Under the pieces are notes generated by a model, which did no database searches, was not told the DNA's origin, and saw only the letters and a program-made list of their open reading frames with translations. From positions 1 through 33,260 of the forward strand of contig JBFMCO010000062.1 of NCBI GenBank assembly GCA_040754495.1: a stretch of 33,260 bases of DNA, read 5' to 3'. Within the stretch, counting starts at the first letter, position 1; each line of letters opens with the position of its first letter. The stretch comes from Candidatus Micrarchaeota archaeon. Lineage in GTDB: Archaea > Micrarchaeota > Micrarchaeia > Anstonellales > Bilamarchaeaceae. Position numbers and translations under genes: made by a program. Positions 16,231-17,150 of this stretch are shown here, in pieces.

Positions 16231-16346
16231 TGTCAGCGGTCACAGGGAGGGGGCAACACCTGATCCCATTCCGAACTCAGAAGTTAAGCCCCTCCACGGT
16301 GTTTTGAGTACTGCTCTTCGAGCGGGAAAATACACTGCTGCTGACA
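16231..16346 (+). rRNA. rrf: 5S ribosomal RNA
   Basis: Helix I TGTCAGC(16231)/GCTGACA(16346); diagnostic CCTGATCCCATTCCGAACTCAGAAGTTAAGC; length 116 nt. Confidence 0.96.
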
Positions 16347-16375
16347 CTTATATTTCTCCCCGCTACTTCTGGAAC

Positions 16376-16390
16376 TTCTGTTTTCTTTTA
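16376..16390 (+). terminator. Pyrimidine/T-rich putative terminator after 5S rRNA
   Basis: CTTCTGTTTTCTTTT tract ~30 nt downstream of the 5S 3' end; archaeal termination uses oligo-T tracts. Confidence 0.4.
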
Positions 16391-16586
16391 GCGGAGTCTA
16401 TGCATAGTCCCGCCGGGCCCATAGTATTGACTCAGGGGCCCTCCGGGGGCAGAAACGGCAGGTTACCGTCGCGCCCATAGTTCTAACTCATGGGCGCTTC
16501 GGGGGTAGCCGGTTTCCAGTTTTCGGTTTCGTCGTGTTCGGAACAGGGAACTGGAAACCGGAAACCGCCACCCAGCCCTCCGGGCC
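16391..16586. ncRNA. Candidate structured non-coding element (unassigned; strand uncertain)
   Basis: No plausible ORF. Five hairpins, including two homologous modules (16416-16452, 16471-16508) with compensatory GC/CG swaps and a 13-bp perfect stem (16509-16521/16549-16561). Confidence 0.45.
16512..16565. repeat. Inverted pair of heptamer triplets (GTTYYNN units)
   Basis: GTTTCCA GTTTTCG GTTTCGT at 16512-16532 and, on the minus strand, GTTTCCG GTTTCCA GTTCCCT at 16565-16545. Confidence 0.6.
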
Positions 16587-16634
16587 GAATCGGCGCATGG
16601 CCACTCTTTTATACCCCGCGCTCCAAATCCACTC

Positions 16635-17150
16635 ATGGAATTCTACGACGTCCTCCGGAACAGGCATTCGGTGAGGAAATTCCAGGACAAGGACATGGAC
16701 AAGGCCAAGGTGCGGGACATCGTGGAGGCCGGCATCAAGGCCCCTTCAGCCGGCAACCTCCAGTCCTACCGCATCTGCATAGTGCGCTCGAAAAGCGTGA
16801 GGGAAGCGCTCGTGCCGGCCTGCGAATATCAGGATTTCATCGCGGAAGCTCCTCTCCTCCTGGTTTTCTGCGCGGACCTGAAGCGCTCGGAATCCAGATA
16901 CGGGCAGAGGGGCTTCGAGCTCTTCGCCACCCAGGATGCGACGATAGCGGCAGCCTACTGCCAGCTTGCCGCCACGGCAGAGGGGCTCTCATCTGTCTGG
17001 GTGGGCTCGCTTGACCAGCTCGAGGTGTCGCGGGTGCTGCACCTCATGTCGTTCGAGGTGCCTGTTGCCATGCTTGCCATAGGCCATCCGGCGGAGGCGG
17101 CGGGCATCACCGAAAGGCGGCCTGCCAAGGAAATCGTGAGGGAATACTGA
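16635..17150 (+). CDS. Nitroreductase family flavoprotein
   Basis: RHSVRKF, APSAGNLQ, QDATIAAAY, GLSSVWVG, AIGHP motifs. TTTTATA ~23 nt upstream. Confidence 0.92.
   Translation: MEFYDVLRNRHSVRKFQDKDMDKAKVRDIVEAGIKAPSAGNLQSYRICIVRSKSVREALVPACEYQDFIAEAPLLLVFCADLKRSESRYGQRGFELFATQDATIAAAYCQLAATAEGLSSVWVGSLDQLEVSRVLHLMSFEVPVAMLAIGHPAEAAGITERRPAKEIVREY

Follow-up and report, generated by a model that had tools for sequence, protein, structure and literature searches.

Two dispersed repeat families, one of them a candidate gene-end module, in the folded spacer behind a 5S rRNA gene of a Candidatus Micrarchaeota archaeon

Does the strongly folded DNA that separates the 5S rRNA gene from a nitroreductase-like gene in this archaeon encode a small structured RNA of its own, or did it arrive there in some other way? 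The window that we analyzed, a stretch of 33,260 nucleotides, is contig C62 of a genome (G000) of 1.63 Mb in 72 contigs, with 59.5% G+C and 80% completeness, and the spacer between the two genes, 288 nt in length, holds the whole of the folded stretch. The first-pass annotation, which was made from the sequence alone and from which the name nitroreductase-like is taken, had regarded 196 nt of this spacer as a single undescribed RNA gene beside the 5S gene, with tandem protein-binding hairpins, and had offered an element resembling bacterial REP sequences as its fallback. The single gene specific to the 5S locus did not survive the analysis: the long hairpin of the spacer is one copy of a repeat found throughout the genome, and the duplicated modules next to it belong to a second dispersed family.

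On the plus strand, positions 16385 to 16590 fold with a minimum free energy of -103 kcal/mol (z, -6.05), a stability equaled by none of 200 shuffled sequences; the minus strand of the same stretch gives a z of -4.4 and, followed from 16585, contains no T4 tract before the antisense of the 5S gene. All of the stems listed in the first-pass annotation are present in this plus-strand fold, which comprises a small hairpin (16391-16413), the two modules M1 and M2, a short hairpin between them (16455-16469), a long hairpin (16 bp plus 6 bp), and a closing helix (16442-16450/16575-16584). The long hairpin, with a z of -4.86 by itself, accounts for much of this excess stability; the left half of the structure with both modules (16388-16500) reaches a z of only -2.15 on the plus strand and -2.61 on the minus strand. 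The modules constitute a 43-nt direct repeat (16410-16452 and 16466-16508) with 79% identity and a spacing of 56 nt, close to the 28 matches in 38 positions from which a duplication had been proposed. In M1, an outer stem (16409-12/16444-47) is followed by a 2-by-2 internal loop, an inner stem (16415-20/16436-41), a loop of 15 nt, and a 3' tail GGCAG; M2 has a stem at 16466-76/16492-16502 and the tail GGTAG, and its z when folded alone is -4.54. Compensatory stem changes between the two modules had also been claimed, and exactly one pair bears this out (G-C to C-G, columns 18/42), but there is no run of such pairs. The features of the locus are collected in the table.

Table. Features of the 5S locus in the window, with the observation on which each rests
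Feature	Position	Strand	Basis
5S rRNA gene	16232-16346	+	Rfam RF00001, 77.4 bits, full length
Native 5S trailer CTTATATTTCTC, 12 nt	16347-16358	+	Same or close variant after the 5S gene in the loci of 19 relatives
Lineage-specific inserted block, ~248 nt	16359-16606	+	Comparison of the 5S locus with relatives; limits accurate to +/- ~3 nt, CTC being present at both flanks
Pyrimidine-rich leader of the gene-end element, with two terminal U4 tracts (TTTT-C-TTTT, 16381-16389)	16364-16390	+	Near-identical in G010
Hairpin 0, small and variable, between leader and core	16391-16413	+	Minimum-free-energy fold
Core hairpin copy M1	16399-16458	+	R1, 71.5 bits; R2, 59.2 bits; row of alignments A2 and A4
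Short spacer hairpin ACGG/CCGT, M1-M2 interval	16455-16469	+	Minimum-free-energy fold only; comparative support none
Core hairpin copy M2, tandem duplicate	16458-16514	+	R1, 49.4 bits; R2, 46 bits; 79% identity with M1
Heptamer-periodic palindrome	16509-16567		T-type arm 16509-16531, loop, A-type arm 16539-16567
Second copy of GCCCTCCGGG (the 3' arm of M1)	16575-16584	+	Exact 10-nt direct repeat
TATA-like box TTTTATAC, putative promoter element of the nitroreductase-like gene	16607-16614	+	Read from the sequence; ATG at 16635
Nitroreductase-like gene, 171 aa	16635-17150	+	ORF list; syntenic 5S neighbor in part of the genus

The closing helix, and with it the four-way junction of the first-pass annotation, is present in the minimum-free-energy fold but is not conserved, and it is missing in the partial homologue of the relative G010. 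It occupies 16444-16447, bases that pair with 16409-12 in the repeat family, and thus competes with the family outer stem of M1. The helix rests on the second of two exact copies of GCCCTCCGGG (16438-16447 is the first), which is probably a partial duplicate of the 3' arm of the module; an analogous repeat can be read in the sequence around the heptamer tract of G010.

No known RNA family accounts for the region. A search of the window against Rfam returned nothing besides the 5S rRNA at gathering thresholds, and allowing E values up to 10 added two chance matches to miRNA models at ~15 bits; the G010 homologue and two other copies of the family were likewise without a match. The earlier failure to find RNase P, SRP, tRNA, C/D, or H/ACA signatures was borne out in this search. 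A tRNA, split tRNA, or intron-bearing tRNA was rejected, as ARAGORN with default settings found none and the Rfam tRNA model gave none at E values up to 10, and relaxed ARAGORN settings, with and without deletion of the heptamer hairpin as a mock intron, produced implausible calls only. A group II intron domain V and a bulge-helix-bulge motif were dismissed by eye on account of an unfitting pairing pattern.

The modules had appeared to be unique in the genome when short-word BLAST was used, an impression that was overturned by a motif search and then by covariance models. A search with the module tail CTCCGGGGGCAG led to two look-alikes on contigs C60 and C64 of the same genome, which align nearly gap-free with M1, M2, and the G010 homologue (alignment A2). 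A covariance model constructed from five copies (R1) recovered the C64 copy, M1, the C60 copy, M2, and C5:20588 from its own genome at E <= 1e-8, plus weak matches, and gave matches in 9 of the 40 genomes of the genus; this count includes two that we judged to be false (G005, L285; G053, L287) and that probably are so, being situated inside a long minus-strand ORF without a pyrimidine leader. With a second model (R2), derived from a curated, gap-free alignment of 21 rows (A4), matches were obtained in 6 genomes of a 151-genome sample of the order, from two genera of one family, with 10 matches in G048 and seven near-identical units of ~117 nt in G087, a member of the other genus. The two models together place the family in at least nine genomes of two genera; the copies found by covariance model range from 1 to 10 per genome, with 4 to 10 in the richest. 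These copies are scattered, on separate contigs or 6 to 19 kb apart, and an integron attC identity was rejected on the same grounds, there being no cassette arrays. The G087 units (L305, L309, L310, L312, and L315) consist of T5CTTCT motifs, the hairpin, and further T5CTTCT motifs, and they occur as tandem pairs at two loci. Neither this family nor the heptamer family described below was found in the literature or has an Rfam model, and a search of metagenome and genome contigs with the 16-mer CTTCTGGAACTTCTGT yielded chance matches only, with no examined locus matching the spacer.

Covariation across the dispersed copies shows that pairing, rather than sequence, has been maintained. In A4, the paired cells of a 12-pair helix amount to 81.8%, against 67.8% after shuffling, and 7 of the 12 pairs vary on both sides, as in columns 11/49 (11 C-G, 8 G-C), 18/42 (16 C-G, 5 G-C), and 15/45 (5 G-C, 4 A-U). 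The covariation score of 0.303, compared with 0.088 +/- 0.019 in shuffled alignments, was reached by none of 500 shuffles, and partners slid by 1 to 3 columns gave 0.072 at most, although all of these shuffle statistics are inflated by the relatedness of the 21 rows. RNAalifold independently recovered the outer stem and part of the inner stem. Compensatory differences are also seen at apparently orthologous loci, in one set behind a small gene ending in CEFC (G000 C64, G051, and G047) and in another beside a conserved convergent gene (G000 C5, G011, and G048); the nitroreductase proteins of these species are only ~51 to 67% identical, so that pairing has been kept over substantial divergence. 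The claim of a structured element with maintained pairing is therefore upheld, for a family that recurs in several genomes. The core loop, of ~15 to 18 nt, is partly conserved, as are the flanks, 5' CAG-T and 3' GGCAG; we dropped the notion that the loop is a TATA box because an A/T-rich loop is missing in many copies. Wobble pairs were uninformative for strand assignment (G-U to A-C, 12:12), and the U-G closing pair seen in 14 of the 21 rows leans toward the sense strand.

The long hairpin has a separate origin. It is a member of the commonest repeat of the host genome, a (GGTTTCC)n-loop-(GGAAACC)n palindrome, and it begins 1 nt beyond the GGTAG tail of M2. The sequence AACCGGAAAC with its complement is the most frequent 10-mer of the genome (106 copies versus 3 for the reversed control), and BLAST of 16500-16572 against the genome produced short matches on more than 40 contigs. 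There are 25 clusters with at least three motifs, most of which consist of GGTTTCC-like units, a loop, and GGAAACC-like units, and the polarity is strongly biased, with the T-type arm leading in 41 clusters and trailing in 6. Heptamer units are ~3-fold enriched within 80 nt downstream of crude ORF ends, and some species of the genus carry the motif in expanded numbers (106 copies in G000, 58 in G010, and 43 in G044). Direct repeats flanking 24 heptamer hairpins were no more frequent than at random positions, giving no sign of target-site duplication, and a literature search retrieved neither the heptamer dimer nor a link between Micrarchaeota and such repeats.

The two families are nevertheless associated with one another. 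In 5 of 24 copies of the gene-end hairpin (M2 of the window, three in G010, and one in G048), a T-type heptamer array lies no more than ~12 nt from the hairpin tail, compared with a base rate of 1.9% at random intergenic positions; a sixth array, on C33 of the host genome, starts ~40 nt past the tail.

Other settings of the heptamer repeat were observed along the way. The possibility that ATGGCAG forms inverted repeats at the termini of heptamer elements was rejected, since this sequence is the start-codon region (ATG GCA G..) of similar ORFs behind some arrays. Hairpins in the host genome at C22:87333-87440, C22:87476-87580, C40:17823-17950, and C51:55460-55510 end 5 to 8 nt before the ATGGCAG of MAVYVWE..-like ORFs, and by their sequence the repeats at these ORFs look like parts of the 5' leader of an apparent paralogous gene family. 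ARAGORN, run with introns allowed, predicts long introns in most tRNA genes of this genome, and GGTTTCC/GGAAACC hairpins are situated inside several of the predicted introns (C31:48520-48679, C14:25165-25407, and C22:56228-56398). A second module recurs in predicted tRNA introns, gccttttgggaaaaggcgg..ccaaaacc..ctgatgaaaa (C14:25165, C56 near 40600, C59:8528, C28:24611, and C9:25249), which, having TGATGA and CTGA, may resemble a C/D box RNA.

Comparison with the 5S loci of 19 relatives delimits what is particular to the window. In 11 of them, the 5S gene is followed by a homologue of the nitroreductase-like gene, with 51 to 67% amino acid identity, and in 8 of these 11 the spacer is ~33 to 75 nt long, the trailer CTTATATTTCTC running directly into a TATA-like box; a comparable A/T box stands at equal distance from the ATG in relatives. 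The arrangement is well illustrated by G022 and G017, where a spacer of ~42 nt leads straight from the trailer to the TATA box and where the extra sequence of G000 and G010 has no counterpart. A DNA search of the genus with the window spacer found G010 only (1 of 39 genomes), and R2 with its filters off detected a copy in G010 alone among the 19 loci. G010 has the leader and one module in common with the window, together with a diverged hairpin 0, and continues with a degenerate, one-armed heptamer tract; the 93-nt stretch concerned has a z of -0.30; hairpin 0 itself is not conserved there, and other copies of the family have between none and two unrelated small hairpins at this place. Because G010 has a single module, the M1/M2 duplication is specific to the window, and the palindromic heptamer hairpin and the closing helix are likewise local features of the block, which extends over ~16359 to 16606. 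Filled and empty 5S sites differ by no duplication beyond a trivial CTC, and the ends of the gene-end element are not sharply defined. An exceptional spacer of ~235 nt in G006 (L013) carries an insertion of another kind, in which the 24-mer GGGAGATTAAAAAAGAACCGTAGG is exactly duplicated; a short-stem hairpin there, behind CTTCTCTTCTACAG, resembles G000 C5:30465 by eye and was not detected by R2 at E values up to 5.

Most copies of the module family are positioned behind genes. The end of a same-strand gene (an ORF stop, a tRNA, or the 5S gene) lies 24 to 58 nt upstream of the model match, mostly at 45 to 53 nt, in at least 18 of 28 copies. The genes in question include the 5S gene of both G000 and G010, eleven ORFs of 250 to 490 codons, several small ORFs, and a tRNA in G087; the distance is 52 nt from the 5S end in both genomes and 52 nt from the tRNA, which Rfam confirms. 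Two other G087 copies lie behind sequences that bear tRNA T-arm signatures and were left uncalled by the models. The rule has exceptions: a few copies have no same-strand gene ahead of them, as at the locus shared by C5, G011, and G048, which lies between two minus-strand genes. A related pyrimidine-rich leader, with a typical ending ..TTTTCTTTCCTTCTCAG, precedes every copy, and TTTT occurs in the upstream 70 nt of 20 of the 28 copies (AAAA, in 2 of 28). Its exact motif occurs only twice in the host genome, and the 3' flanks of genes in general show an enrichment in plain T runs; hence, this leader is not the generic terminator of the genome, and the element as a whole cannot be a general terminator, because only ~5 to 10 genes per genome carry one. 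In Methanococcus maripaludis, transcript ends are preceded by U4 tracts; termination is most efficient where there are two or more of these, and aCPSF1 binds them (PMC8716108). The tracts in the window lie 35 to 43 nt downstream of the 5S gene, and the predicted leader agrees in this respect with the U4-tract definition of archaeal terminators (PMC8716108). As delineated by comparison of the copies, the putative gene-end element thus consists of a leader with U4 tracts, 0 to 2 variable hairpins, a GC-rich core hairpin, and a GGCAG tail.

Several of these properties are what a purely selfish, nonautonomous mobile element of the MITE, REP, or PATE type would be expected to leave behind, one for which the hairpin would be the target of a transposase acting in trans and the 3' flanks of genes would merely tolerate insertion. 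The distribution is patchy, no more than 9 of the 40 genomes in the genus having the element and a second genus contributing a single genome; there are near-identical copies and tandem pairs in G087, the element is present or absent at the 5S locus among relatives, and its build is modular, with variable extra hairpins. The REP-like fallback of the first-pass annotation came near the mark to the extent that both components are dispersed repeats, but there is no GTAG flank and no Y1/RAYT gene in the copy-rich genomes. A search for the RAYT/HUH transposase that such an element would need found no Y1/IS200-type domain (PF01797) in G000 (80% complete), G010 (93%), G048 (90%), G011, or G051, a set drawn from the genus of G000 that contains its three genomes with most copies; 9 other genomes in this genus contain PF01797, and only 2 of them have the hairpin. 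Terminal inverted repeats and target-site duplications were not seen at the loosely defined ends of the element, and the orientation and distance relative to the upstream gene are strongly constrained. Copies at orthologous loci persist between species whose proteins are only ~50 to 67% identical, with pairing kept by compensation, and this argues for selection on the side of the host. We accordingly regard an exclusively selfish origin as unlikely, although it deserves to be taken seriously.

The original proposal, recast as a small structured RNA with tandem protein-binding hairpins that would be transcribed independently, on one strand or the other, from a promoter of its own next to the 5S gene, draws on the stable fold, the covarying stem, and the partly conserved loop. 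Candidate promoters can also be read from the sequence: a TATA-like CTTATATTT lies ~30 nt upstream of the U tracts, and the nitroreductase TATA read backwards (16603-16620, minus strand) gives a G-rich stretch plus TATAAAA, from which a start near 16585 would be plausible. The CTTATATTT box, however, follows the 5S gene in every relative irrespective of the sequence beyond it, and no consistent promoter-like box stands ahead of the copies. The 196-nt architecture is not conserved, G010 having one module, no palindromic heptamer hairpin, no closing helix, and a z of -0.30; apart from that of G010, none of the 19 5S loci of relatives gives a copy with R2, and each of the two components is found at many places elsewhere, immediately downstream of unrelated genes. 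These observations make a dedicated RNA gene a doubtful proposition, and we consider a DNA-level role to be more improbable still. Under the latter, the palindrome, as duplex or cruciform, would be a protein-binding operator, roadblock, or recombination site with no part played by RNA, in agreement with wobble counts that favor neither strand and with the conserved sequence in the loop and flanks; eukaryotic Pol I terminators, in which a T-rich release element is followed by a protein roadblock, provide a precedent. Yet the stem varies freely in sequence and retains its pairing, unlike the sites of sequence-specific duplex binders, and the conserved part is in the loop, which is unpaired only in a hairpin or cruciform.

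The region is an assembly of two dispersed repeat families in a block of ~248 nt, and we lean toward the interpretation that the hairpin family is a duplicative gene-end, or terminator-flank, module. We suggest that the U4 tracts would act as the archaeal termination signal of the upstream gene and that the stable hairpin just past them would form in read-through RNA or in unwound DNA and reinforce the boundary, as a structure protecting the 3' end, a pause site, or a site for binding of a factor. In the window, the element may shield the promoter of the nitroreductase-like gene from the transcription unit of the 5S gene. The family would spread by duplication or insertion into the 3' flanks of genes and then be retained by selection. 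Further considerations weigh against a gene-end function, besides the exceptions and the small number of genes noted above: efficient termination at the U tracts would mean that the downstream hairpin is seldom transcribed, and the near-identical copies in G087 look like the recent spread of a selfish element. A bolder version seems to us a speculative, rather unlikely possibility: the hairpin would be a cis-acting signal dedicated to forming 3' ends or to termination, a factor would recognize it, and it could be carried about as a cassette, with the heptamer palindromes a linked second module growing from its 3' side.

The consequences differ according to which of these proves correct. The published archaeal termination signal comprises U tracts and aCPSF1 without conserved structure (PMC8716108), which would make the family a candidate for a structured signal at gene ends of DPANN archaea, and one that can be tested; if the hairpin is indeed a dedicated cis-signal, it would be the first structure-specific element of the terminator type to be described in Archaea. 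If it is only a selfish repeat, it would show that compact symbiont genomes gather modular hairpin repeats, in this case two families, one of which is also found in tRNA introns. In addition, the locus serves as a warning that well-folding intergenic DNA in this lineage should not be taken to represent single ncRNA genes.

Among known systems, the module family resembles the bacterial REP/BIME elements, short, GC-rich, imperfect palindromes that are intergenic, lie mostly just behind genes, and keep their pairing while their sequence drifts. REP elements have been reported to stabilize 3' ends or to aid termination. Unlike REP/BIME, which number tens to hundreds of copies, the family has ~1 to 10 model-detectable copies per genome, includes a long pyrimidine/U-tract leader within the unit, lacks a 5' GTAG, resides in an archaeal host, and is unaccompanied by a Y1/RAYT gene in the copy-rich genomes searched. 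With archaeal U-tract terminators and their factor aCPSF1/FttA (PMC8716108, PMC7515710), it shares the one or two sense-strand U4 tracts behind gene ends, including those of stable-RNA genes. The published archaeal terminators, however, have U4 tracts before the transcript end and no conserved structure behind them (PMC8716108), whereas here a leader and a covarying hairpin are combined at a handful of genes. A GC-rich hairpin with T runs at gene ends also recalls bacterial intrinsic terminators, and in G087 a T5 run follows ~12 nt past the hairpin, but in the window and in most copies the order is reversed, with the U tracts first and nothing T-rich after.

Cyanobacterial STRR sequences are dispersed arrays of tandem 7-nt units in noncoding DNA. 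The long hairpin is like them in consisting of dispersed tandem 7-nt units in noncoding DNA and differs in being palindromic, in its fixed polarity (41 versus 6), in its presence in tRNA introns, and in its archaeal host. Dispersed extragenic palindromes are already known; what looks new in the module family is the lack of a RAYT partner in combination with a U-tract leader, a covarying hairpin, a fixed distance from the upstream gene, and an archaeal host.
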